Source: Acinetobacter phage nACB2 | Sequence record: OQ032512.1 | Length of the DNA: 64,000 bases | Direction: 5' to 3' (one strand) | In this document: positions 311-48,863 of the stretch, piece by piece | How the letters are laid out: the number at the start of each line of letters is the position of its first letter | Numbering within the stretch: the first letter of the stretch is position 1 | Made by a program: the position numbers and the translations under genes | Notes under the pieces: model-generated | The model's database searches: none | The model's input: the letters and a program-made list of their open reading frames with translations, nothing else | Told to the model about the DNA's origin: nothing

Positions 311-384
311 GTTTGACTCCGATATTAAATCTACGTTAATAATAGTTGAAACCCCAATCAATGGATAAAAATCAAGTCAAAAAG

Positions 385-410
385 AAAAAGCCCCTGAATA
401 GGGGCTTTTC
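385..410. terminator. GC-rich hairpin (GCCCC-tgaata-GGGGC) flanked by an A-run and a T-run; a bidirectional rho-independent terminator
   Basis: The sequence aaaaagcccctgaataggggcttttctttg is visible in the window. A near-identical copy lies at 4664-4690. Confidence 0.5.
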
Positions 411-421
411 TTTGTCCGAGT

Positions 422-808
422 TTATACCAAGTTGATGAAATGTTCTTTACATACTTCTTTGACGATTGTGTCAAAGTCATCTTCAAAGTCACAGACGTCA
501 TCCAATGAGTCTACTGTAGTTGTTGAAACGTAGCCGTTGACCTTTGTAACTTTGAACGTAGATACATTTTCTCGGGTTACGGCTAAGGTGACTACGCCTT
601 GACTAGAAATAGATGTAAATGAGATTGAGTTAGGGTCAACTACAATAGCAACATCTTCAGAATAATCATAGCTGTTGACGATTGAAGAAATAGCGGAAGC
701 GAGTTTGTCTGAAAAAGTGATGTTGCGAATGCTCTGACCAGCTCTGACTGATACATCTTGATCTAGGGTGTATCTTGAACCTGATACAAAAAATTTAACT
801 GTAGACAT
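422..808 (-). CDS. hypothetical protein
   Basis: 128 aa ORF in a co-directional minus-strand early-gene array; no recognisable motif. Confidence 0.4.
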   Translation of the reverse strand: MSTVKFFVSGSRYTLDQDVSVRAGQSIRNITFSDKLASAISSIVNSYDYSEDVAIVVDPNSISFTSISSQGVVTLAVTRENVSTFKVTKVNGYVSTTTVDSLDDVCDFEDDFDTIVKEVCKEHFINLV

Positions 809-902
809 TTGAGTTCTCCGCTGAGAGGTAATATAAGTTTGTGTCCATGAGAGATAGTATAATGGTTTCCATTAAGGAAGTAAAGGACTATTTCCGAAAT
901 AT

Positions 903-1229
903 TCAAATAATATTTTCTCGAATGAACAATCTTGCGAAATTATGTTTCTGGAGATGTTTGGTTAAATCTGTTAGGAATGTAAATTTTATTAGACTTTCCT
1001 CTGTCTTGAAACCATTAGCGCACCATATCTTGAGTTCATACGCATCACCCTTTCTTAGAGATATGATGTATTGTTTCTCGCTCTTAGTGTAACTAACCAT
1101 TACAAAGTTACCATGCACTTCAGCTTGGCATTCTTCAATGTTCTCCACTTCAAATGAGTCTGTCATCAATTTGCTTATTTTGACCTGTACCGTATTTTCA
1201 AGATCAATATTCATAAAACTTCTACCCAT
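903..1229 (-). CDS. hypothetical protein
   Basis: 108 aa ORF whose ends overlap its neighbours by 4-20 nt, which is phage-typical packing. Confidence 0.4.
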   Translation of the reverse strand: MGRSFMNIDLENTVQVKISKLMTDSFEVENIEECQAEVHGNFVMVSYTKSEKQYIISLRKGDAYELKIWCANGFKTEESLIKFTFLTDLTKHLQKHNFARLFIRENII

Positions 1230-1510
1230 TCGTTATTGAATTTCTTTTGTATTTTACAAATGTATTTCGTATCTAACATAGATGGCGTTGAATCATAAAG
1301 AAATAATGTGTTTGAAGTACAACGATATGCTTGATTATCCACATAAAAAAAATGGTATCTGGATGAGTTTAACGGTTTGTGGATATCCCCTTCTAAAATC
1401 AGAACATCATTTTTGTATACTTCAAACTTCATATTGTCTTGTTTAGTGCACCCTAGTAGAGAACAAACCAAAACAACTAAAAATAGATATTTCATTAAAG
1501 TTCTCCGCAT
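1211..1510 (-). CDS. putative lipoprotein
   Basis: N-terminus MKYLFLVVLVCSLLGCTKQ carries a signal peptide and an LLGC lipobox. Confidence 0.5.
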   Translation of the reverse strand: MRRTLMKYLFLVVLVCSLLGCTKQDNMKFEVYKNDVLILEGDIHKPLNSSRYHFFYVDNQAYRCTSNTLFLYDSTPSMLDTKYICKIQKKFNNEWVEVL

Positions 1511-1968
1511 GACGCTTCAATTATTCTATCGATCACTTGACGACGGCGCGAATTAAACGGCGTAATTGTTTTTTGAAATGACTCCAAGATTACTTTTACA
1601 TCCTTATTGTTGAGGCTCTCTATGAAATCTTTGTCCAAAAACATTTCGCATCTTGCCCAAGTTCCTTCTTCACCTTCAACGTAATACTTTGGATTTGAAA
1701 GATTGCGGGAAAGTAATCTGGCTTCACCTTCCGCCAATTCTAAAACAATGTACCCATCCTGAATGAATGTAATTATCTCATGAGAGGTGTAGAACTCGTT
1801 GTATGTTACGTCACACTGAAAAGCTACGCATGCTTGTTTTCCGTTTAGAACGTCTCTCAATTCCATAGAATCGTCTGTGTTAAGACGAGCTATGCCAATT
1901 TTACAATTCAATGAATCATCTAGTGTCATTAAGACGCCATCAAGGCTTGTTCTAGGTATTCCGTACAT
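1495..1968 (-). CDS. hypothetical protein
   Basis: 157 aa ORF; no motif recognised. Confidence 0.4.
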   Translation of the reverse strand: MYGIPRTSLDGVLMTLDDSLNCKIGIARLNTDDSMELRDVLNGKQACVAFQCDVTYNEFYTSHEIITFIQDGYIVLELAEGEARLLSRNLSNPKYYVEGEEGTWARCEMFLDKDFIESLNNKDVKVILESFQKTITPFNSRRRQVIDRIIEASCGEL

Positions 1969-1980
1969 ATTCTTTATTTC

Positions 1981-2322
1981 CTACAATTTGTACTGTTTGA
2001 TCTGCTCATCAATAATATGACGCATTTCTGGATAATATTTCAGGGTATATTCTTTATATGATATACGACTTCCGTCTTCATCAATTAATTCAATTTCTGA
2101 TAGATTTCTAGCATATCCCATATCACCTCGAATATACAACGCATCACGGCTTCCTGTCTCTATGAAACGTATGTAACCATCAACGGAACTGTTTCCAGTA
2201 TAAAATTCAACCCCTAGTAAGTGCATAAACATGCGCACATATTCTGAAGTTGTTATTTCATCGTATTGAAACTTTAAACGATGAGTTCGATTGAAACCAA
2301 CGTTGGGTATTTCAAATGTCAT
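1981..2322 (-). CDS. hypothetical protein
   Basis: 113 aa ORF. Confidence 0.4.
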   Translation of the reverse strand: MTFEIPNVGFNRTHRLKFQYDEITTSEYVRMFMHLLGVEFYTGNSSVDGYIRFIETGSRDALYIRGDMGYARNLSEIELIDEDGSRISYKEYTLKYYPEMRHIIDEQIKQYKL

Positions 2323-2355
2323 ATCTTTAAACCTATATTCATGAAGTAAAAAACG

Positions 2356-2877
2356 TTAAAATACAAAAATCGAGTCTGTATTTTCCAATTGTCTAGTGGT
2401 GTAATTTTTACCTTCCAGACGGTAGTGTGGGAACATACTATGAAGGCACTCTCGAATATGTTTCATCCTTTGAGTCATTGACAAATGAAAGGTTTGATCA
2501 GCCAACCCTAAGTCATCAAGATTCACTATACCAAATAAAGATAACATGCTAGATGGTATATTCTTAGGACAGACTCTGACTTCAAAATCTAATTCGTACT
2601 CAGGAATCATAGAATGAGACGGATACTCTGGATCCCATTCGAGCGCGTCGTTATCAGGATGAATATCAACCTCTAGAACGGCTATAGATTTATAATCAAA
2701 TATTTCTGGATAAGTTCCGGAAGCCAAAAGTTCAACCCAGTCAGAAGACAGATAAACGCCTAGTGGATCATGTTGGTCAGACGTTTGTGTTGGTGGTTTA
2801 GCGAGTAGACCGAACTGATGTATTGAGTCTAGATTCTCTAAAGGTGTTAAATGATATAGCATCAGCGTTCTCCGCAC
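2356..2877 (-). CDS. hypothetical protein; possible ADP-ribosyltransferase fold (DarT/DUF4433-like N-terminal motif)
   Basis: N-terminus LYHLTPLENLDSIHQFGLL resembles the lYHfT..NL.sIl..GlL signature of DarT-family ARTs. Downstream GVYLSSD and acidic EYELDFE could supply the Y and E of an H-Y-E triad. This rests on motif recall only. Confidence 0.3.
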   Translation of the reverse strand: MRRTLMLYHLTPLENLDSIHQFGLLAKPPTQTSDQHDPLGVYLSSDWVELLASGTYPEIFDYKSIAVLEVDIHPDNDALEWDPEYPSHSMIPEYELDFEVRVCPKNIPSSMLSLFGIVNLDDLGLADQTFHLSMTQRMKHIRECLHSMFPHYRLEGKNYTTRQLENTDSIFVF

Positions 2878-3692
2878 ACCTTGTTTTCAATCATGACTAC
2901 ACTATCTCTTAACAGTTTGAATGACTGTAGGTTTAATTCATTCTGGTCTATCTTCGATAGTATAGGTCTTAGAATTGAATTGTTGTAAGATTGAAGTGAA
3001 GGGCTTTTCTTTATCAACGTTGAAGCTGTGTGGATCATCAACTCCAAGTCTTTTTTACCACTCAGAATGCAATCGTCCACGTTAAAAATATCCATTATGG
3101 TTTCATTCGTCTTGTAATAGCTCTGAGCTGGTTTGGTGCCTTTGAACTCAACATACAGAGCTAAAAAGTATAACGCAAACGCAACAATATAATAATACCA
3201 TTCCAAGTTGAAAAATAACATCATTATTGCTAAAACTACAAAGAGTATGAATGTTGCATGAATATATTCAACCAAATTTAATTTATATTCATTTCTGAAT
3301 CCTTGATGGTTGAGAATTATCATTCTGGGATTTTCGAAAGAAAACACAGCTCCCCAACTAGGCTCATATTCAACAAAATCGAACAACATATTTCTTATGT
3401 CTAAGAAGTCTTGTACACTTCTAGCATTTTCAATATATTCTCTAAAGGTTCTTGAAGAGATGTATTGTTGAATTTCTAAACGTCTATTGATCATCTCATT
3501 GAATGGTTCTTGATCCCAGTCTAGACCATCAAGTAAAGATATTCTAACCATGGACACATTTAGATCATTTATTAAATTTGTGGCTCTAGACATATCATTG
3601 TATATAATATCCGATAGACGAGAAAGAATGTCGATTTTAGTTTGTAAAACATTCTCTTCGGACAGCATTTTAACAACTATTGGATTTATCAT
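2862..3692 (-). CDS. integral membrane protein, function unknown
   Basis: Hydrophobic stretch ATFILFVVLAIMMLFFNLEWYYYIVAFALYFLALYV indicates at least 2 transmembrane helices. Confidence 0.45.
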   Translation of the reverse strand: MINPIVVKMLSEENVLQTKIDILSRLSDIIYNDMSRATNLINDLNVSMVRISLLDGLDWDQEPFNEMINRRLEIQQYISSRTFREYIENARSVQDFLDIRNMLFDFVEYEPSWGAVFSFENPRMIILNHQGFRNEYKLNLVEYIHATFILFVVLAIMMLFFNLEWYYYIVAFALYFLALYVEFKGTKPAQSYYKTNETIMDIFNVDDCILSGKKDLELMIHTASTLIKKSPSLQSYNNSILRPILSKIDQNELNLQSFKLLRDSVVMIENKVCGER

Positions 3693-4108
3693 CTTTTTAT
3701 AATGCTCGCAGTATTGAGTGGAAACGATTCTGGGTCTAGAGGATCTTTCAACCGTCTAGGATTCAACTCAATCCATTCATAGCCTATTTCATCTTTGCGG
3801 AACCATTCTTGGTTTGGAAGTTTACTAGGCATCTTTGTATGGAAACGCATGGTTCCGCTTCTGCCTACGCTGAAGTATCTGAAACGTCTTGACGGCGCGT
3901 AATCCCATACGTTCGCGTATACTGGTAAAGGCTCCTCATACATCTCTAACAGAGACATAAACACAATGTTACTTGTGTCTGTTATATGCTTTTCATCGGC
4001 GCCAATCCAATTACTTCCATCGTACGTAGCCCATAGAACCATGGAATTGTTCAAAAACAAAGCATATGTTCCATATTCTGGACTTTCATCAAATGGGTTT
4101 AACAACAT
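3689..4108 (-). CDS. hypothetical protein
   Basis: 139 aa ORF. Confidence 0.4.
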   Translation of the reverse strand: MLLNPFDESPEYGTYALFLNNSMVLWATYDGSNWIGADEKHITDTSNIVFMSLLEMYEEPLPVYANVWDYAPSRRFRYFSVGRSGTMRFHTKMPSKLPNQEWFRKDEIGYEWIELNPRRLKDPLDPESFPLNTASIIKR

Positions 4109-4184
4109 GAGACTGCTCTCGTTATTATATCAATGACCTATTATAATAGCAAACGAAATATTTTTAAAAAATCAAATGAATCAC

Positions 4185-4213
4185 TTTACTTCACCCAAGA
4201 AATTGATTATAAT
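4185..4213 (+). promoter_or_regulatory. sigma70-type (T4 early-like) promoter TTTACT-17-TATAAT with an upstream A/T tract
   Basis: tttact at 4185-4190, a 17 nt spacer, and tataat at 4208-4213. The same TTTACT-17-(T/C)ATAAT architecture occurs at 5781-5809, 49540-49568 and 50256-50284. Confidence 0.55.
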
Positions 4214-4219
4214 AGATAT

Positions 4220-4240
4220 CAGGTTTGAATTTCAAACCTG
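4220..4240. promoter_or_regulatory. perfect 21 bp palindrome caggtttgaa-t-ttcaaacctg between the -10 box and the conserved leader motif; candidate operator or RNA hairpin
   Basis: Exact dyad symmetry seen in the sequence, positioned at about +7 to +27 of the predicted transcript. Confidence 0.5.
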
Positions 4241-4268
4241 TTTAATAACACTCAATGGAGTAGTCAAT

Positions 4269-4646
4269 ATGACAACTAATTTCACAATCTTGGTAGAATC
4301 TGATTTTCATAAACTAGACAGTAAAACAATTGGCGACATTCTGCGCGGAGAGATTGTACAAGTGATGAAAGAATGTACTGATGATCTAGAAGCCAATTAC
4401 CGCTTTTCAGACGTTGTATTCACTCAGGTATCTAAAACTCATCGCATGATCACTTCTTCAGTCTCAAACAAAGGTACTTTCAAAACAGTATCTGTTAATA
4501 TTGATGAAGAAAATGACATCTATGTCATGTCTGTGTTAGCTGACCGTGAACGTTATGACCGTCGTTTCGGCGATCTAGCTTCTCTTGTAGGCAATCTAGG
4601 CGCTGAAGATGCAAGAATAATCGCTGTATTGAATAAAGCGTTCTAA
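4269..4646 (+). CDS. hypothetical early protein (125 aa; ATG at 4269 preferred over the track start at 4176)
   Basis: A GGAG Shine-Dalgarno sits 8 nt upstream of ATG 4269, inside the conserved leader TAATAACACTCAATGGAGTA. The track ORF start at 4176 would include the promoter. Confidence 0.5.
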   Translation: MTTNFTILVESDFHKLDSKTIGDILRGEIVQVMKECTDDLEANYRFSDVVFTQVSKTHRMITSSVSNKGTFKTVSVNIDEENDIYVMSVLADRERYDRRFGDLASLVGNLGAEDARIIAVLNKAF

Positions 4647-4663
4647 TTTTCTTGTAATAAAGG

Positions 4664-4690
4664 AAAAGCCCCAATAGGGGCTTTTCTTTT
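4664..4690. terminator. GCCCC-aata-GGGGC hairpin plus T-run; bidirectional terminator between convergent genes
   Basis: Sequence aaaagccccaataggggcttttcttttg; near-identical to the hairpin at 385-410. Confidence 0.55.
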
Positions 4691-4692
4691 GT

Positions 4693-5700
4693 CTAGAAAG
4701 GAAGTTTGTTATCCTTCACTAGCTTGCTATAACCGCCGTCATCAAATACGCTGAGGTTGGTATTGCCATCGAAATTGCTACGCTTCATGGACGAGATGTT
4801 TATGATGTTATTCAAAGCATAAAATTGTTGGTCTACTGAGCAATGCGCGAGGTCATTAACCTTAGCCATCATGATAGCTTGGAAGGATTCTGGTAGCCGT
4901 TCCAATACCTTATAAGAAATATCTATAGTGGAGAAGCGTTGGTACGTGTATTCATTGAACTTATGTTCTCGCAGAGCAGTGAACATAGGTCTAGAAGCGC
5001 GTTTGTCGCCTTTTCTTAAATCCAACATATCTGGTTTGAACAGATGTGATCTTTCCATCCAAATAAATGCATCTCGAAAATCTTCAAATGCGTAACCTCT
5101 ATACGGAGAATGATTCAATTCTAAGATGTCTAAAACCGCGAACCAGTCTGTAGTTATCAATACTAGATGCTCCACACCTGCGGTAACAGTCTTATAGTAT
5201 AGTCCTGTATTTTTGAGAACCATCTTGAAGTTTCTTAACCATATCTGTAATAACTGAGAAAGGTCGCCATACGAATAATAATGTGCGCTGAAAGATAAGC
5301 AGTTACTAGGAACAAACTGAACATCTACATGACACCACTTACCCTCGGTTGATTTCAACCGTAGCTGAGAACTACCTTCCGTTTGTATCAAGTAACGTTC
5401 TGACGGCTCTACTGTACTGTTGTGTTTAGCGAATACTCCCATATCAACCCAAGGATGATCAGGTTGCTCGTTACGATAGGCTATCATAGCCAATTCATTG
5501 ACTGCACAACGGTTTTGAACAGTATCAGAAAGAAATACGTCAAGGTCTCCGTGATCTTCTTTAGATTTAAAGAACTCAGGAAAATGAGGCTTTGATATAT
5601 TAAAGTCATTACTTGTTGAAAGAGTAGTTAAAAGACGCTTTAAGTTTTCCAACGTCTCTGTACTCATACGTTCTGTTTGTTTAAAAGCATTTCCGCTCAT
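4693..5700 (-). CDS. hypothetical protein (335 aa)
   Basis: Long ORF. The HGDLDVF stretch lacks the G[GS] of a nucleotidyltransferase motif, so no call is made. Confidence 0.45.
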   Translation of the reverse strand: MSGNAFKQTERMSTETLENLKRLLTTLSTSNDFNISKPHFPEFFKSKEDHGDLDVFLSDTVQNRCAVNELAMIAYRNEQPDHPWVDMGVFAKHNSTVEPSERYLIQTEGSSQLRLKSTEGKWCHVDVQFVPSNCLSFSAHYYSYGDLSQLLQIWLRNFKMVLKNTGLYYKTVTAGVEHLVLITTDWFAVLDILELNHSPYRGYAFEDFRDAFIWMERSHLFKPDMLDLRKGDKRASRPMFTALREHKFNEYTYQRFSTIDISYKVLERLPESFQAIMMAKVNDLAHCSVDQQFYALNNIINISSMKRSNFDGNTNLSVFDDGGYSKLVKDNKLPF

Positions 5701-5780
5701 AACTGTAATCCCATCATTGGTTTTATCATAGATGAGTCTATTATAAGTGAGGATTCCAATTAAAATAATAAATCAAATCC

Positions 5781-5809
5781 TTTACTTGGTGCTGATAATA
5801 CAGTATAAT
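5781..5809 (+). promoter_or_regulatory. early-type promoter TTTACT-17-TATAAT for the HU-like gene
   Basis: tttact at 5781-5786, 17 nt spacer tggtgctgataatacag, tataat at 5804-5809. Confidence 0.55.
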
Positions 5810-5866
5810 GTTCTTCATTCAGGTAATAACCTGTATTAATGTCTCAAACAATTTAGGAGAATAGAC

Positions 5867-6142
5867 ATGAACCGTACTGAACTTGTAGCTGCTGTAGCAA
5901 AAACAACTGGCCAAACTCAAGTATCTGTTGAAGCAACAGTGAAAGCAATTGAAGCAGAAATCACTAACCAATTCGTAGCTGGTAACGGCGTACAACTTAT
6001 CGGCTTTGGTTCATTCAAAGTAACTCCAGTTGAAGCGCGTAAAGGTCGCAACCCGCAAACTGGTGAAGAAATTGATATTGCTGCTACTAAACGCGTTACA
6101 TTCAGCGTTGCTGATTCAACCAAAGAAAAATTAAAAGGCTAA
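5867..6142 (+). CDS. HU/IHF-family DNA-binding protein
   Basis: MNRTELVAAVA...GFGSFKVTPVEARKGRNPQTGEEIDIAATKRVTFS has the canonical HU beta-arm motifs (GFGxF, RNPxTGE). It is flanked by a promoter and a terminator. Confidence 0.9.
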   Translation: MNRTELVAAVAKTTGQTQVSVEATVKAIEAEITNQFVAGNGVQLIGFGSFKVTPVEARKGRNPQTGEEIDIAATKRVTFSVADSTKEKLKG

Positions 6143-6157
6143 ATTTTTCTCAGGTAC

Positions 6158-6185
6158 AAAAAAGCCCCTTGCGGGGCTTTTTTAT
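6158..6185. terminator. GCCCC-ttgc-GGGGC hairpin plus T-run
   Basis: Sequence aaaaagccccttgcggggcttttttatt immediately after the HU stop codon. Confidence 0.6.
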
Positions 6186-6391
6186 TGGCTGTCTATTTCT
6201 CTGGATTGCTTCTTTCCTTGTTGACGCTCAATTCTATGCGTCATAATTTTTGTATACTTTCCTACACAACCTCCGCCTTTGTTACAAGGTCTAGCTGTCC
6301 AATAGTCGTATCCAACTGGTTTACTGCCTTTACGCGTTCTACTCATTTCACTCTCCGATAAAAAATGAGACTTGCGTCTCATTTTGATAAA

Positions 6392-6637
6392 TTACTCAGG
6401 CATACCTAAATGTACACCTTTTTCATCATAGAGCCGTCGCCGTAGCTCTATATTATTAACTTCAATTTCAACCATGCGGTCTTTAGTTTTATTATGCTCA
6501 GTTAAGAGATAATTGTATTTGCTCTTCGAGTCCTCTAGACCTTTCTGTAGATGTTTGTTTTCACGTCTTGATAATTCATATAGTATACAAAGAACGCAAC
6601 AAATAGCTCCAAGAAAAGCAACAACGCCAATATCCAT
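6392..6637 (-). CDS. small membrane-anchored coiled-coil protein
   Basis: An N-terminal transmembrane segment (VVAFLGAICCVLCILY) followed by a charged coiled-coil. Confidence 0.4.
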   Translation of the reverse strand: MDIGVVAFLGAICCVLCILYELSRRENKHLQKGLEDSKSKYNYLLTEHNKTKDRMVEIEVNNIELRRRLYDEKGVHLGMPE

Positions 6638-6969
6638 TATAGCATCACTCCAAGTGTTATGATTATAACAATAATTAGATGAGCTATTTGATCCTGAAAA
6701 AACGTTAAACGGCTGTCATTCTTCATGAAGTCGATAATGAAATGCGATAAAACCATAAACCACATTGAGACCATAGCGACGTTAGACTCGTGTCCAAGCG
6801 CCTTCAGTACGATATAAACGCCCAAACCGTGTATAAAACAATGAGCTAAAAGAATAATTGACCAGTTAGGGTCAACGTGTCTAGATTTATGAACAGCGAC
6901 AAAATCCCCTTGCAACGGAAAGTCGCAAAGGAAGTGGACTGCCAATAGTATAGAAAAAAGTTCGATCAT
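6637..6969 (-). CDS. small multi-pass membrane protein (possible DUF3307-like)
   Basis: About 3 transmembrane helices; the HFLCDFPLQ motif resembles the H..DF.LQ signature. Confidence 0.35.
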   Translation of the reverse strand: MIELFSILLAVHFLCDFPLQGDFVAVHKSRHVDPNWSIILLAHCFIHGLGVYIVLKALGHESNVAMVSMWFMVLSHFIIDFMKNDSRLTFFQDQIAHLIIVIIITLGVML

Positions 6970-9135: not shown

Positions 9136-10615
9136 CTAGAATAGGGAGTCAAGGCTGAACGATGTCGGAGCCTTTGCCTCCCAATTTATTGCTGTTAAAA
9201 AGTTAGTCAAAGGCGAAATGAAGCACTTATTGAATGCTGTTTCTTTATCAATAAACTGATCAAGTTTGAACTCCTTCGGCAATTGATCATCATATGATAT
9301 TACTTCCATACCGAAAGGCGAACCCTTCCGTAATGGTAACACAAAATATTTATTCCCGCTACGAAGTGGCATGATATGTGTCACTTCCAACCGTTTCAAT
9401 AGATTGTTATGGTTCACTGCGCCTTTAACGTGATAAGGTGTACCCTTTACGTAATTACCGCTACTATCTAGATAGTCTTCAATGTTGTTGATATTTTGAG
9501 CAGCGCCGTACTCATTAATATCTCGATCCTTTTTGAAGTCTGTTTCACAAGCGTCAACAAACTGATGCATCTCAGTCATTCGATCATTCAACGCAAATTC
9601 ATAACACTTCTTCATCCAATCTCGACAGAACATTGGGTAGTTTGATTTACGCGCTTCTAAGCCAACAATCTTCAGCTTAGGAGACGCGAATCGAACGCCT
9701 TCATTATCTGTTAATAGCATAGCGTATCTTTTCTTAGTAGTAAAGATGGCAACTGTAGAAATCGCTTCTCGCTTAAAGAAAAGAGCATTGATTGGGCAGT
9801 TATATGAAGCAGCTAGTTCTTCAGCCCATTGGATGAATAGTGGTTCAAGAACGTCTTTAGCGAGTTCATCAAGTTTGTCAGTTTTAGCTTCAACAGACAA
9901 CTTATCCCAACCTTCGGCTTTCACCACTTCTTTAAATTCAACGTACACAGAGTCTGTATCACCGTAGAAACAGTGATCACCTGATAGACCGTATTTGTTA
10001 TTGATCCATTCGTTCAAGCGGAACATGATATGACGCGTTGAACATTGTCCAGCTGTAGTAATTGCTTCTGCAATACGAATATCAAAGTGGTCAGCAAAGT
10101 TTTCATTCGCAATCGCGCCGTAACCAGCGTTGGCAGCAATTTTATGCGAGTGTTGGTTTGAATCGCCGTTCTGAATGATTGTTTCCCATTCATCCTTCTG
10201 CTTATAGAACCCTGCGTCCTTCTCTAGACATTCATCAAGATATTTTTTCTTGATAGATTCTAAAGAGCGTTCATCATTCTTCATTTGACGTTTAATCGCA
10301 GAACGCGTGTCGTACAAGTCTTTGAATACGCGACGTAACAGAGATGGACGCTCAATCTTGAACATGGCTAAGTTTGGAGCCATACAAACTTTAAGGCGCT
10401 TGAGTACTTGGAAATCATATGGGCGTTCAAAATATACATCCCAAATGCCTTGACGAGCACGGAAGCGTTCAGCGTACAAACGTGTATATTTGTCTTGTTG
10501 GTCTTCAGGTAAAGATTCCAATTCTTTTGCTAGTGCATCTAGAATCTGTTCTGTAATAGCCCAAGGAATCAAGGTCTCAACGCCCATATTGAACTGTTGC
10601 GCCATGTGTGGATAT
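9136..10615 (-). CDS. 43: DNA polymerase (family B, gp43-like), 3' exon or C-terminal segment (palm, fingers, thumb)
   Basis: Contains motif B-like KIAANAGYGA and motif C FYGDTDSVYV. Its N-terminal YPHMAQQFNMGVETL aligns to YPSIIRQVNISPETI of T4/RB69 motif A. The track ORF start at 10785 reads through intron sequence. Confidence 0.85.
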
Positions 10616-11788
10616 CCTTTATGTTCAGATGAGTTCGTGATTCTCATCCCGGAATTGTATCCAGCTTGTATTCGCATACAAGAGCAGACTATATCATCAC
10701 CCACGTTATACGTTTGGTACGCTGTTGTAACTAGCGCAGATGAGCTATACTCACCGTGTCTCCCGTTTCCAATTAAGCCATACATTTAGGCACCACACTT
10801 GGCTGTACTATGTCTTGCGACTGTCTAGTCGTTGAACCTTTCAGAACTTCTTTGATCTTTAGTGTATACAGTTCTACATCTAAACCTTTTAATTTCAATG
10901 GCTTGACGTAGTTAGATGCTAGTGTTCCGTTTTGGTTGAAGATTGTTTTGCCTTTCGCTTGAGCCTTCAGATAGTAAGCAAACAATTGTTCGTCAGACCA
11001 TCCAATGATTTCAAGTTTCTTGCGTTCAAGACTTTCTTTGAATTTTTGCTTTCCATCTTCTGATTGCATCGGGTTAGATTGTTCAAACCCTTTACCATCT
11101 AGATGATGTTTCAATTCGCCAGAAATATATCTTGGATCATTCTTTTCAGTCATAAATGTATTACCGTCTGAGTCTTTAACAACAACTCGTCCAGTCATGT
11201 ATTCTTGACTACGTTTAGTGATGCTTTTAGCAGTTTCTTCATCAGCCCCAAAGAACTTTTTACCGTTCATATCGGGTCTAGAAACACCGCGTTTAGTCTC
11301 ACTAATCTTCAACTTCACATCTTCGCGCTTAGATGGATTGTTCTCACCTGAGTTCATTACGCTAGCATTCAATCTAGCTTCAACGGTATACTCAGCGCCA
11401 TCTCTAGTTGTTGTCATTAAGTGATACGCAAATCCCATACCTCGAGTTTTTGCGCCTAACATCAATAATCTATGCGCTTCGACGTGTTCTAAAATAGATA
11501 AATCTATCAGATTCCACTTAGCATTTCTGTATTCATAAAAATCGCAGACTGGAAGAATATGATGACACTCTGTTACGCCATAACCTTTAGCAGACAAAAT
11601 GAATTCCACGTACTGTTCTAGTACAGCGTGGTCACCATTCTTGTAAGTCTGTTTCAAAGCATCTAGCATTTGTAAAGCGTTCATATAATTCACCATTCTG
11701 ACTTGGCTGCTGATTGTCTCAGTGAGAGTTCCCAGCAATTAAAGAGATTTTCATTGTATTATTACTAATACAAGCCCCTTATCAGTTA
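10616..11788 (-). mobile_element. putative group I self-splicing intron (1173 nt) carrying an HNH homing endonuclease ORF, inserted inside motif A of gene 43
   Basis: The 5' exon ends in U (..gccct) and can pair with GGGGC 10 nt into the intron, forming a P1 with a U-G pair at the splice site. The intron ends in G (..cataaagg). An R-like GGUUCAACGACUAGA (about 10821-10838) and an S-like GAUAUAGUCUG (about 10685-10698) can form P7. A P9-like hairpin CUUGUAU-GCGA-AUACAAG carries a GNRA loop. Joining the exons restores DANALYPHMAQQ in frame. Confidence 0.55.
10773..11696 (-). CDS. HNH homing endonuclease (intron-encoded)
   Basis: The HNH motif is ECHHILPVCDFYEYRNAKWNLIDLSILEHVEAH, and NUMOD-like GENNPSKRED repeats are present. 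The first in-frame ATG is at 11696; the track uses a TTG at 11738. Confidence 0.75.
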   Translation of the reverse strand: MVNYMNALQMLDALKQTYKNGDHAVLEQYVEFILSAKGYGVTECHHILPVCDFYEYRNAKWNLIDLSILEHVEAHRLLMLGAKTRGMGFAYHLMTTTRDGAEYTVEARLNASVMNSGENNPSKREDVKLKISETKRGVSRPDMNGKKFFGADEETAKSITKRSQEYMTGRVVVKDSDGNTFMTEKNDPRYISGELKHHLDGKGFEQSNPMQSEDGKQKFKESLERKKLEIIGWSDEQLFAYYLKAQAKGKTIFNQNGTLASNYVKPLKLKGLDVELYTLKIKEVLKGSTTRQSQDIVQPSVVPKCMA

Positions 11789-13053
11789 AGGGCATTAGCA
11801 TCCACTGAAACCACGTCTTCGTACCGTCCTGGCTTCAAATCTTTAACGTATCCGCCAGCGTAATCAGGCTTAGAATTCACGCGCGCACGAATTTCAGAAT
11901 ATTCTTTGCCGCGTGCTCCATAGCCGTACATCAAGTATTGCCAAGGAAGTACTGTCGCATTTGTGTCGTCTGGATTACAATGGAATAAGAAAGCCAGCGT
12001 ATATGCCAGTTGTAACATCTTAGTCTTTTCGGCAATGCGCTTAACTAAGTTCACGTCATGAATGTTGTATGAGATGTAGTTCTGGAAGTCTTTGTAATAG
12101 AATTCAGTCAGGTTTTTATAATCGCTATGGTCAACCTTTTCTTCACCCAAGAAGTGTTTTGCGGCTGTGTTTAGCTTTTTGTTATCCAATTCTACAAAGG
12201 CGTGTTTGTCAACGATGTCTTTCAAATCGAGGTTGCTGATACCTGCAATGTTGAAAGTCACTTCTTCGCCATAAGGTCCTTGGAAGGTACGCTTGCGCAC
12301 GTAATCTAGTGGAGAAATGCGTTTGAGCTGATCTCGTCCAAGAAGGGCGTCAATACGGTTACAGAAATATGCAATATCAAACGTGTCGCTGTTCCACCCT
12401 GAAATATAGTTGTATTCGGCATCTGCGAAATGATCAACAAAATCTGCAAGTAAGTCTAGCTCAGAGTCATAACCAACATATTCAATTTGTTCTGGCGTGA
12501 TATGTTTAGCTACTTCAGGCGGTAACTTTTCTACATCGAAAGTACCAATATATTCGCCCTTGAACGTCTCAAGACCAAATACAAAGAATTTATTTGTAAA
12601 TGTGTCATAAACCGTGATGGCTGTGACTTCGTATTGAGCTAGAGCAGGCTCAGGGAATGGGCCACTAAAGATAACGCCTTTTGCGTCTTTATAACCAGAC
12701 TCAACCTCAATATCCAGAAGCGCGCCGCGGATATGTTTCATATCAAACGTAATCTGCTTTTCAGGATAACGTTCAGCCACATATTGAGCTAGAGGGTTGT
12801 CAATGCCGTAGATTTTGTAGTTAGGAACGTTCTTCATTTCATCTAACCATTGATCCATGGCATAGATGTTATCAAAAGTCACAGCCTGTAAGGGTAGACC
12901 ACCTAGAGAACGGTGTTCAGATTCTTGATCTTGAGATGGTACAAATAACTTGGGCTTGAAATGAATTTCTGAAGTACCACGTACGCCATTTTCTACGTAG
13001 CGCTCAATGATTTTTTCTTTATGCTTGGTTAGTGAAGTGTAAAAACGAGACAT
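11789..13053 (-). CDS. 43: DNA polymerase (gp43-like), 5' exon or N-terminal segment (N-terminal and 3'-5' exonuclease domains)
   Basis: N-terminus FYTSLTKHKEKIIERYVENG aligns to T4 FYISIETVGNNIVERYIDENG. Exo I motif LLDIEVES is present. It ends ..SVDANAL, followed in the genome by N and a stop codon. Confidence 0.85.
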
Positions 13054-48516: not shown

Positions 48517-48593
48517 GCGCCTGTAGCTCAGTTGGATAGAGCATCCGCCTTCTAAGCGGATGGTCACAGGTTCGAGTCCTGTTAGGCGCGCCA
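48517..48593 (+). tRNA. tRNA-Arg (anticodon TCT), with encoded CCA
   Basis: Manual fold: acceptor gcgcctg/taggcgc, D-arm gctc-agttggata-gagc, anticodon stem tccgc/gcgga with loop cttcTaa, T-arm acagg-ttcgagt-cctgt. Confidence 0.8.
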
Positions 48594-48708
48594 CTTTCAA
48601 ACTCCAGAATGCGAGGACAACAGTATCACCCAGAACACGGCGGTGGTTGCGTTATTAGCATGGACAACGCGGCAGTCGGTAAAAGCCGTGGGCGTAGCAA
48701 TACGCTCT
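48594..48708 (+). ncRNA. 115 nt spacer between tRNAs; possible small stable RNA, not a tRNA
   Basis: No T-loop or cloverleaf is found. By analogy to the small RNAs in the T4 tRNA cluster it may encode a processed RNA. Speculative. Confidence 0.2.
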
Positions 48709-48784
48709 AGCCTAGTAGCTCAGTTGGTAGAGCAGCGGATTGTTAATCCGTTGGTCACAGGTTCGAACCCTGTCTAGGCAGCCA
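48709..48784 (+). tRNA. tRNA-Asn (anticodon GTT), with encoded CCA; A1:A72 mismatch
   Basis: Manual fold: D-arm gctc-agttggta-gagc, anticodon stem gcgga/tccgt with loop ttGTTaa, T-arm acagg-ttcgaac-cctgt, 3' ctaggca-g-cca. Confidence 0.75.
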
Positions 48785-48786
48785 TT

Positions 48787-48863
48787 GGGACTTTAGCTCA
48801 GAAGGTCAGAGCATCCGACTCATAATCGGGCGGTCACTGGTTCGAAACCAGTAAGTCCCACCA
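48787..48863 (+). tRNA. tRNA-Met/Ile2 (anticodon CAT), with encoded CCA
   Basis: Manual fold: acceptor gggactt/aagtccc, anticodon stem tccga/tcggg with loop ctCATaa, T-arm actgg-ttcgaaa-ccagt. Not initiator-like, because there are no 3 G:C pairs in the anticodon stem. Confidence 0.75.

Follow-up and report, generated by a model that had tools for sequence, protein, structure and literature searches.

Predicted td-like group I intron with an endonuclease reading frame in motif A of the DNA polymerase gene of Acinetobacter phage nACB2

The family-B DNA polymerase (PolB) gene of Acinetobacter phage nACB2 lies on the minus strand of the 64-kb stretch of record OQ032512.1 analysed here (the window, to which all coordinates refer) and is interrupted in the codons of motif A by an insert of 1,173 nucleotides (nt) at 11788..10616. 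This insert is very probably a mobile group I intron that belongs to subgroup IA2, shares the build of the phage T4 td intron and carries an endonuclease open reading frame (ORF), an assignment that draws on two half-matches to the Rfam model RF00028, on covariation and on homology of its 3′ end to that of the td intron. In all likelihood it is competent for splicing; splicing and homing are both predicted from sequence. The initial annotation of the region had proposed a group I intron in motif A rather than a simple split of the gene into 43A and 43B cistrons, and the model matches, the structure, the covariation and the relatives at the same site all favour that proposal. The element is already known in kind, since the same-site homologue in phage LIMEstone1 was named a putative intron in 2012.

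Exon 1 (13053..11789), delimited by the ORF list, translation and Pfam, encodes the N-terminal and exonuclease part of the polymerase and matches DNA_pol_B_exo1 (E 5e-12). Its 3′ end reads ..GAU GCU AAU GCC CU, the final base, U11789, being the predicted 5′ splice site. From there the exon-1 frame continues for two codons into the insert and meets a UGA at 11784..11782, and the upstream ORF as listed (13053..11782) encodes 423 amino acids (aa) with the C-terminus ..SVDANALN*. The polymerase frame resumes 1,173 nt further on along the minus strand, as the initial annotation had stated. The insert begins with UAACUGAUAAGGGGC (first base U11788) and ends in ..AAAGG with G10616 as its last base (omega-G), which bears out the terminal G expected earlier for a group I intron and is accompanied by a 4-bp P10. 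Exon 2 (10615..9136), defined by the joined ORF, Pfam and a gapless alignment, carries the rest of motif A together with the fingers, palm and thumb and matches DNA_pol_B (E 5e-12). In the ORF list, the second ORF spans 11738..10773 and the third, which contains ..KGYPHMAQQFNMGVETL, spans 10785..9136. Removal of 11788..10616 joins gccct|atatcca into a single ORF of 2,745 nt (914 aa plus stop) with D-A-N-A-L-Y-P-H-M at the junction, exactly the restoration of motif A that had been predicted (..VDANAL|YPHM.., within the longer stretch ..VSVDANALYPHMAQQ..). A10615 supplies the third base of the Leu codon CU|A, and the insertion point falls between the second and third base of this motif A codon (D-x-x-[S/A]-L|Y-P). 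The predicted ligated-exon RNA would read ..AATGCCCT|ATATCCACAC.. across the junction and the protein ..DANALYPHMAQQ.., with the tryptic peptide ..YEDVVSVDANALYPHMAQQFNMGVETLIPWAITEQILDALAK between R428 and K469 spanning it. In the comparison with intron-less homologues that had been suggested, the spliced protein aligns gaplessly across motif A with the polymerases of PhiW-14, RSP15 and phiA8-29 and with a T4-like polymerase. The junction region of the polymerase occurs in 841 phage records, 444 of which cover the junction in one uninterrupted piece.

A check with the Rfam group I model, also suggested by the initial annotation, is positive in part. In a 1.8-kb search in E-value mode, RF00028 matches the minus strand at 11798..11570 (34.9 bits, E 9.4e-7), where P1, P2, P3, P4, P5 and the start of P6 are aligned with high posterior probability, and again at 10986..10665 (28.5 bits, E 7.8e-5), where UUCAACGACUA is aligned as P7, GAUAUAGUCU as the J8/7 junction with the 3′ strand of P7, and the P9 hairpin is included; in the whole 64-kb window the corresponding E-values are 3.3e-5 and 2.8e-3. 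The two matches are complementary halves of one model with the ORF in between. Both lie below the gathering score of 50 bits, and an Rfam scan of the window at the gathering threshold returns three tRNAs only, the intron being absent. It is sub-threshold because an ORF of about 840 nt sits in the P6a loop and the model cannot span it. The P4-P5-P6 motif of the window (AATTGCTGGGAA..AATCAGCAGCCAAG) occurs in at least 120 viral-contig loci, and ten ORF-less introns with this motif in viral contigs score 81-101 bits with RF00028 at the motif site, further introns on the same contigs scoring 67-89 bits. As ORF-less introns with the same core score this highly, the low scores in the window come from the ORF and not from a poor core. 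In addition, the final ~80 nt (10702..10614) share ~80% identity with the 3′ terminal part of td introns from over 280 records of T-even-type and other phages. Together, the Rfam E-values and the identity to the td 3′ end place the intron features beyond chance.

The predicted RNA contains the full set of group I helices, all on the minus strand. P1 is formed by the exon sequence GCCCU (11793..11789) and the guide GGGGC (11778..11774, intron nt 11-15), and its splice-site pair is the wobble U11789•G11778; the Rfam consensus P1 U and G fall on these two bases, and RNAfold recovers the helix as well, in agreement with the P1 drawn in the initial annotation. The in-frame UGA at 11784..11782 lies within the P1 loop. 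P10 is read from the sequence, with support from covariation, as the guide GAUA (11783..11780) paired with exon-2 UAUC (10614..10611). It is followed in the 5′ half by the P2 hairpin UUGUAUUA-GUAA-UAAUACAA (11773..11754), which has a GNRA loop and rests on folds and covariation, by the 5′ strand of P3 (UCUCUU, 11747..11742), which forms a pseudoknot with P7 and pairs with GGGAGA at 10764..10759 with support from covariation, and by P4 (UUGCUGG/UCAGCAG) around P5 (UCUC-ACU-GAGA) at 11738..11707, both of high posterior probability in the Rfam alignment and supported by covariation. P6 CC and P6a UCAGAA (11706..11696) pair with UUCUGA..GG (10846..10837), the endonuclease ORF being looped out between the two strands. 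The stretch 10838..10826 comprises the 3′ strand of P6 (GG), J6/7 (UUCAA) and the 5′ strand of P7 (CGACUA); it corresponds to the Rfam consensus UUCAaAGACUA and is invariant in nine introns. The R-like and S-like elements noted earlier could both be placed, the former being GGUUCAACGACUAGA at 10838..10824 and the latter GAUAUAGUCUG at 10695..10685, where the end of J8/7 and the 3′ strand of P7 read GAUA-UAGUCUG, are family-invariant and match the Rfam consensus GAUAUAGUCu. P7 is thus composed of CGACUA (10831..10826) and UAGUCUG (10691..10685), with UAGUC pairing to GACUA at 10830..10826.

Between P7 and the 3′ strand of P3 are two extra helices, P7.1 (GUC-GCAA-GAC, 10821..10812) and P7.2 (AGCC..GGCU, 10804..10776), the loop of the latter beginning AAGU and being enlarged by 17 nt; both are supported by folds and by covarying compact versions in relatives, and such extra helices are typical of subgroup IA2 (T4 td and Twort type). 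P8 is a hairpin, GGUGAG-UAUAG-CUCAUC (10755..10739), with compensatory changes in the metagenome contigs L134 and L136, and is followed by an extra hairpin, UGCGCU-AGUUACAAC-AGCGUA (10738..10718), with compensatory changes in L134. A P8 drawn instead as a CACG/CGUG stem closing a multiloop was dropped, because one of its pairs is broken in L134 (A·A) and the inner hairpins covary. The 3′ tail (10682..10628) folds into P9 (CUUGUAU-GCGA-AUACAAG, 10682..10665), P9.1 (CUGGA/UCCGG) and P9.2 (GAUGAG/CUCAUC), whose order and lengths agree with the tail of T4-type td introns; the P9-like hairpin of the initial annotation is found at its place, with compensatory changes relative to td. When the ORF is deleted, the remaining 352-nt RNA folds unaided into P1, P2, P4, P5, P6/P6a, P7.2, P8, P9, P9.1 and P9.2 (z = -2.5 against shuffles) by a single-sequence method that is blind to the P3/P7 pseudoknot.

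Comparison of nine ORF-deleted introns, those of the window, SH-Ab 15599, LIMEstone1, SeF6a, CRW-SP2, allotria, Vibrio 1.244.A, ECD7 and the TuIa td gene, points to selection on these helices. The alignment was made by structural element and N-padded, was left gapless by MAFFT, and still carries the CACG/CGUG row for P8 in the window. Standard pairs are made in 96.7% of its 579 cells, a percentage inflated by the fitting of the alignment to the model by hand; the per-sequence folds of sub-segments and the single-sequence fold were made independently of it. Both sides have changed in 45 of the 67 pairs, none of 500 shuffles matches the observed pairing and covariation, and sliding the partners by 1-3 columns lowers pairing to 38-49%. 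All eight pairs of P2 show double changes across the relatives. P3 is paired in 100% of cells with compensatory changes in five of its six pairs, as UCUCUU/GGGAGA in the window, CUCUCU/GGAGAG in LIMEstone1, CCUGCU/GGCAGG in ECD7 and UCUAUC/GAUAGA in td, and P6a likewise differs in sequence yet pairs, over 12 bp in the Vibrio phage (ACCGUUGUUGAC/GUCAACAACGGU) and as GUCA.CUAC/GUAG.UGAC in LIMEstone1 and UGCAU/AUGCA in ECD7. P7 (GACUA/UAGUC) is invariant and so carries no covariation information either way. Among the peripheral helices, P7.1 changes from GUC/GAC in the window to UCCC-GCAA-GGGA in L134 and UCCCU-UU-AGGGA in td, P7.2 from AGCC/GGCU to ACUC-AAGU-GAGU and GGUC-AAGU-GACU in the same two, P8 from GGUGAG/CUCAUC to GUUGAG/CUCAAC in L136 and GGUAUG/CAUACC in L134, and the extra hairpin after P8 to UGCGCA/UGCGUA in L134, while P9 to P9.2 show compensatory changes relative to td (CUGCAUG/CAUGCAG; GAUAAG/CUUAUC). 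P10 tracks synonymous changes in exon 2, with AUAUC/GAUAA in the window, UUAU/AUAG in SH-Ab 15599 and CUAC/GUAG in L134, which makes sense only if the guide aligns exon 2 for ligation. The constraint is also visible in sequence identity between the window and SH-Ab 15599, which is 68% in exon 1, 73% in exon 2 and 73% in the ORF outside the core, compared with 87% in the 5′ core, 93% from the 3′ strand of P6a to P7.2 and 89% in the 3′ core. A non-coding core that is more conserved than an essential polymerase indicates constraint on the RNA. Furthermore, the conserved GGUUCAACGACUA is read in the ORF frame as KGSTTR in the window and as KVQRLS in LIMEstone1, and its conservation in different frames places the constraint at the level of RNA, not protein.

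The ORF within the insert (11684..10773, minus strand; AUG 11684, UAA 10775..10773) encodes 303 aa. Earlier candidates for its start, AUG 11696 and TTG 11738, were rejected, since SH-Ab 15599 lacks both and keeps AUG 11684. The initial annotation had expected the ORF to overlap the P3-P6 core, which is not the case: the 5′ helices of P3-P6 (11747..11705) lie upstream of the start codon, and it is the final ~24 codons (about 74 nt) that cross the 3′ strands of P6a and P6 as well as P7, P7.1 and P7.2. The product is, with moderate confidence, predicted to be an HNH-like homing endonuclease. It matches PHROG 12434 'HNH endonuclease' (E 1e-62) and PHROG 655 'homing endonuclease' (E 7e-17), and seven same-site homologues share ExHHIxP..WN..HVEAHRLL and a NUMOD3-like GxxNPxKRxxVxxKISxxKxG, the latter represented in the window by GENNPSKREDVKLKISETKRG. 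Residues H41, H42, N58, H67 and H71 are conserved at 90% or more among 24 homologues, and AlphaFold places them on strands 38-42 and 59-63 and helix 64-78, a beta-beta-alpha arrangement with a predicted local distance difference test score (pLDDT) of 94. The ratio of nonsynonymous to synonymous substitution (dN/dS) is 0.14-0.19, a sign of purifying selection on the ORF. Of the earlier HNH/NUMOD label, the HNH part has the PHROG 12434 match and the HH..N..H..H motif behind it, with no corresponding match in Pfam, NCBIfam, PDB or fold searches, and 'NUMOD' is a resemblance only: the NUMOD3 family PF07460 does not match the ORF even at E <= 10 and among the homologues is assigned to just two distant ones, P0028 and P0032. 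The intron-less target site would read GTGGATGCTAATGCCCTATATCCACACATGGCG.

The closest genome is that of Acinetobacter phage SH-Ab 15599 (MH517022, 1324..5238), with 75% identity over the gene and an insert of exactly 1,173 nt; its record annotates two polymerase coding sequences (CDSs) and a hypothetical protein, with no intron. A tblastn search with the ORF finds 75 phage records, and all seven ORF-bearing records that were fetched interrupt the PolB gene; they include the Ackermannviridae phages LIMEstone1, Kamild, SeF6a, CRW-SP2, allotria and Vibrio 1.244.A, the core-flanking sequence of Kamild being identical to that of LIMEstone1, and, as the seventh, ECD7 (Straboviridae, Krischvirus). 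At all six junctions read, ..CCCU closes the 5′ exon within the D-x-x-[S/A]-L-Y-P Leu codon, and G is the last intron base. Metagenome contigs add three more members of the window clade at the same site, L133 (99%), L136 and L134/L135. In L133 (IMGVR_UViG_3300033068_001590, 22.5 kb; 3001..6915) the polymerase is 99% identical to that of the window and holds the same intron, and this contig is probably, as judged by this identity, the same phage or a sister phage. A scan of viral contigs for close intron-less relatives returned only this near-identical, intron-containing L133, and a scan of metagenomes returned none. The presence of the ORF in 75 phage records, compared with 841 for the homologous polymerase region, is a scattered distribution that fits ongoing gain and loss.

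The comparison with td, for which the T4-type intron of phage TuIa (AY262157) was used, shows the same IA2 layout, with P1, P2, P3-P6, an ORF in P6a, P7, P7.1, P7.2, P8, P9, P9.1 and P9.2. Over the 3′ 80 nt, identity is ~80% and the helices are of equal length, and both introns have an in-frame stop shortly past the 5′ splice site, whereas the host gene and the P3-P6 sequences differ and the endonuclease belongs to another family, I-TevI of T4 td being a GIY-YIG endonuclease. Self-splicing is proven for T4 td and predicted for the window intron. The host polymerase of the Bacillus phages SPO1, SP82 and Bastille is of family A. Their group I introns (I-HmuI/II in SPO1/SP82, I-BasI in Bastille) follow the same general design, combining a self-splicing intron with an HNH-type nicking endonuclease directed at a conserved polymerase motif (PMC2988022). 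The window endonuclease has no sequence similarity to PDB chains, and hence none to I-HmuI if its structure is deposited there.

The nearest described counterpart is I-LimII, which together with I-LimIII was reported as a putative intron in the LIMEstone1 polymerase gene by Adriaenssens et al. in 2012, without structure or splicing data (PMC3296691). I-LimII and the introns of SeF6a, allotria, CRW-SP2 (Kuttervirus/Aglimvirinae) and Vibrio 1.244.A share the identical insertion point after the U of CCCU, the same P3-P7 core sequence and an ORF likewise placed in the P6a loop, with endonucleases homologous to that of the window (35-38% aa identity). They differ from it in P2, P3, P6a, P8 and P9, with compensating changes, and have a long P7.1, a simple P8 and other versions of P9.1 and P9.2. 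The window clade has instead a td-like tail, a larger P7.2 loop and an extra hairpin after P8. In LIMEstone1 the ORF crosses P7 in another frame than in the window, and the second insertion, I-LimIII, is present only there. As judged from these alignments, a td-like tail joined to a LIMEstone-type P3-P7 core, an enlarged P7.2 loop containing the end of the ORF and the extra hairpin after P8 form a set specific to the window clade. Table 1 of the 2012 paper (PMC3296691) classes I-LimII (3944..4822 in the LIMEstone1 sequence) as GIY-YIG, which looks wrong given its alignment with the HH..N..H..H family and its match to the PHROG 'HNH endonuclease' group.

Introns in gene 43 of T4-type phages have also been described. 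According to reviews from 2010, gene 43B of Aeromonas phage 25 contains a self-splicing intron, JSE has a putative one in gene 43, and gp43 is split in phage 25 as well as in Aeromonas phage 44RR (PMC2993671, PMC2988022). The phage 25 (25.g43B) and JSE introns are group I introns in PolB genes, like that of the window, but the former is without an endonuclease gene of its own and interrupts the 43B cistron of a gene that was split already, and the latter reportedly has a truncated endonuclease gene only (PMC2993671). JSE is described as a close relative of RB49 (PMC2993671), and Krischvirus ECD7 carries a same-site homologue of the window intron with a full ORF. In Escherichia phage G2285 (MK327933, ~1300..2590), gene 43 is intact at motif A and interrupted elsewhere, by one ORF after ..EILASK and by a group I intron in motif B (..INSLYGAL|), target sites that differ from that of the window. 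Introns of this type can also be closely packed, as two viral contigs (L034 at 534..1364 and L083 at 363..1590) hold three full-scoring group I introns each (67-96 bits) in about 0.8-1.2 kb, apparently within one gene each.

In the mechanism proposed for the window, the gene would be transcribed as one pre-mRNA, and ribosomes translating exon 1 would halt at the UGA two codons into the intron. The RNA would fold into P1-P10, the GGGGC guide pairing to the exon end GCCCU with U•G as the splice-site pair; the core would consist of the P3-P8 and P4-P6 domains, and P7 would bind guanosine. Free guanosine would then attack after U11789, the second step would be placed by P10 (GAUA with exon-2 UAUC) and the terminal G10616, and ligation of the exons would yield an mRNA encoding one 914-aa polymerase. 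From the P6a loop, the 303-aa ORF would supply a site-specific HNH-like endonuclease, which in a mixed infection may cut or nick intron-less polymerase alleles at this highly conserved site, and recombinational repair would copy the intron into the cut allele (homing).

Several observations weigh against a mobile, splicing intron, among them the hand-fitted alignment and the two half-matches that fall short of the Rfam gathering score. The extra hairpin in the P8 region is unusual, and the 26 nt before J8/7 (10717..10692) lack convincing pairing. No experiment on the splicing of a same-site intron turned up in the literature searched. The ORF has no Pfam (E <= 10), NCBIfam or PDB match, either by sequence or with a profile of seven sequences, and fold searches were uninformative. 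Finally, the in-frame AUG 10785 could in principle start separate translation of the C-terminal part. The principal alternative builds on this last point and holds that the gene is split, with a dead intron remnant or free-standing endonuclease cassette between two polypeptides that assemble, a 43A-like part ending ..DANALN and a 43B-like part whose start would be AUG 10785 or the YPHM Met. It is very unlikely, although two-part gp43 with polymerase activity is documented in Aeromonas phage 25 (PMC2988022) and database entries for the same-site homologues give the polymerase as separate CDSs. In the window clade, no stop interrupts the 56-81 codons that precede the 3′ splice site in the polymerase frame, and AUG 10785 overlaps the endonuclease stop codon; no Shine-Dalgarno-like sequence precedes this AUG, however, and the open frame is missing in ECD7, Vibrio 1.244.A and allotria (0-15 codons). 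It is open in the window clade because the conserved td-like tail has no stops in that phase, and a comparable in-frame read-through peptide is seen upstream of another gene 43 intron, in phage G2285. The break itself would cut motif A in two, leaving the catalytic Asp on one polypeptide and the SLYP Tyr on the other. Decay would be expected of a dead intron, yet the RNA core exceeds both exons in conservation, its helices covary, and P10 follows exon-2 changes in a manner relevant only if the exons are ligated.

A different objection accepts splicing and questions mobility, the ORF product being inactive or having another role, for example a maturase-like or DNA-binding one. Defunct intron endonucleases are known, as in I-TevIII of T4 nrdB and the truncated homing endonuclease gene in the JSE gene 43 intron (PMC2993671), and curated HNH and NUMOD models fail to match the window ORF. 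This possibility is nevertheless marginally less probable still than a split gene, given that the ORF is full length with a dN/dS of 0.14-0.19, that the HH..N..H..H residues are conserved on a confidently predicted beta-beta-alpha unit, and that the distribution of the ORF among phages is scattered. An intein or other protein-level insertion has nothing in its favour beyond the fact that conserved polymerase motifs are also favoured by inteins. It was excluded by the initial annotation on account of the in-frame stop and can be dismissed: the UGA stands two codons past the junction, many further stops in the polymerase frame follow across the insert, and the endonuclease ORF is in another frame than the polymerase.

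With a mobile IA2 intron as the preferred reading, a joint proposal of dual output from one locus and of movement between phage families can be considered, although it is a long shot. AUG 10785 (minus strand, polymerase frame) overlaps the endonuclease stop at 10775..10773 (..AAAUGUAUGGCUUAA..), opens a 56-codon frame into exon 2 from which a fragment would begin MYGLIGNGR, is kept in SH-Ab 15599 and L136, and lies within the clade-specific 17-nt insertion in the P7.2 loop. As the ORF is translated through P7, P7.1 and P7.2, its translation and the folding of the ribozyme would be mutually exclusive. Ribosomes ending the endonuclease on unspliced RNA may restart at AUG 10785 and produce a C-terminal polymerase fragment, and the window-clade intron may in this way give full-length polymerase from spliced RNA alongside the separate fragment. 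As to movement, one intron unit occupies the identical nucleotide in phages of two types, Ackermannviridae and T4-type Straboviridae, whose hosts belong to five genera. A 2010 review found no convincing evidence of phage introns moving across phage families; the same-nucleotide occurrence, if the proposal is true, would show such movement.

Other observations concern the surroundings of these features. The 26-nt stretch at 10717..10692 reads CCAAACGUAUAACGUGGGUGAUGAUA, and it is unusual for a group I intron to have an insertion so near J8/7. Three tRNA genes, for Arg (TCT), Asn (GTT) and Met (CAT), are clustered at 48517..48863 on the plus strand of the window. According to a 2026 paper, the DNA of SH-Ab 15599 carries hypermodified thymine, and that of nACB2 may do so too.

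The finding reveals no new mechanism and bears in the first place on annotation. For nACB2, SH-Ab 15599, ECD7 and several Kuttervirus and Limestonevirus phages, the polymerase should be entered as a single spliced product of the 914-aa class, where the records now list two 'DNA polymerase' fragments and a hypothetical protein, with effects on gene counts, pangenome clustering and polymerase phylogenies. The predicted intron is a well-resolved addition to a td-like family that targets the most conserved polymerase motif and is seen in phages of Acinetobacter, Dickeya, Salmonella, Vibrio and Escherichia, a family suited to studying both the spread of introns between phage families and the overlap of an endonuclease ORF with a ribozyme core.

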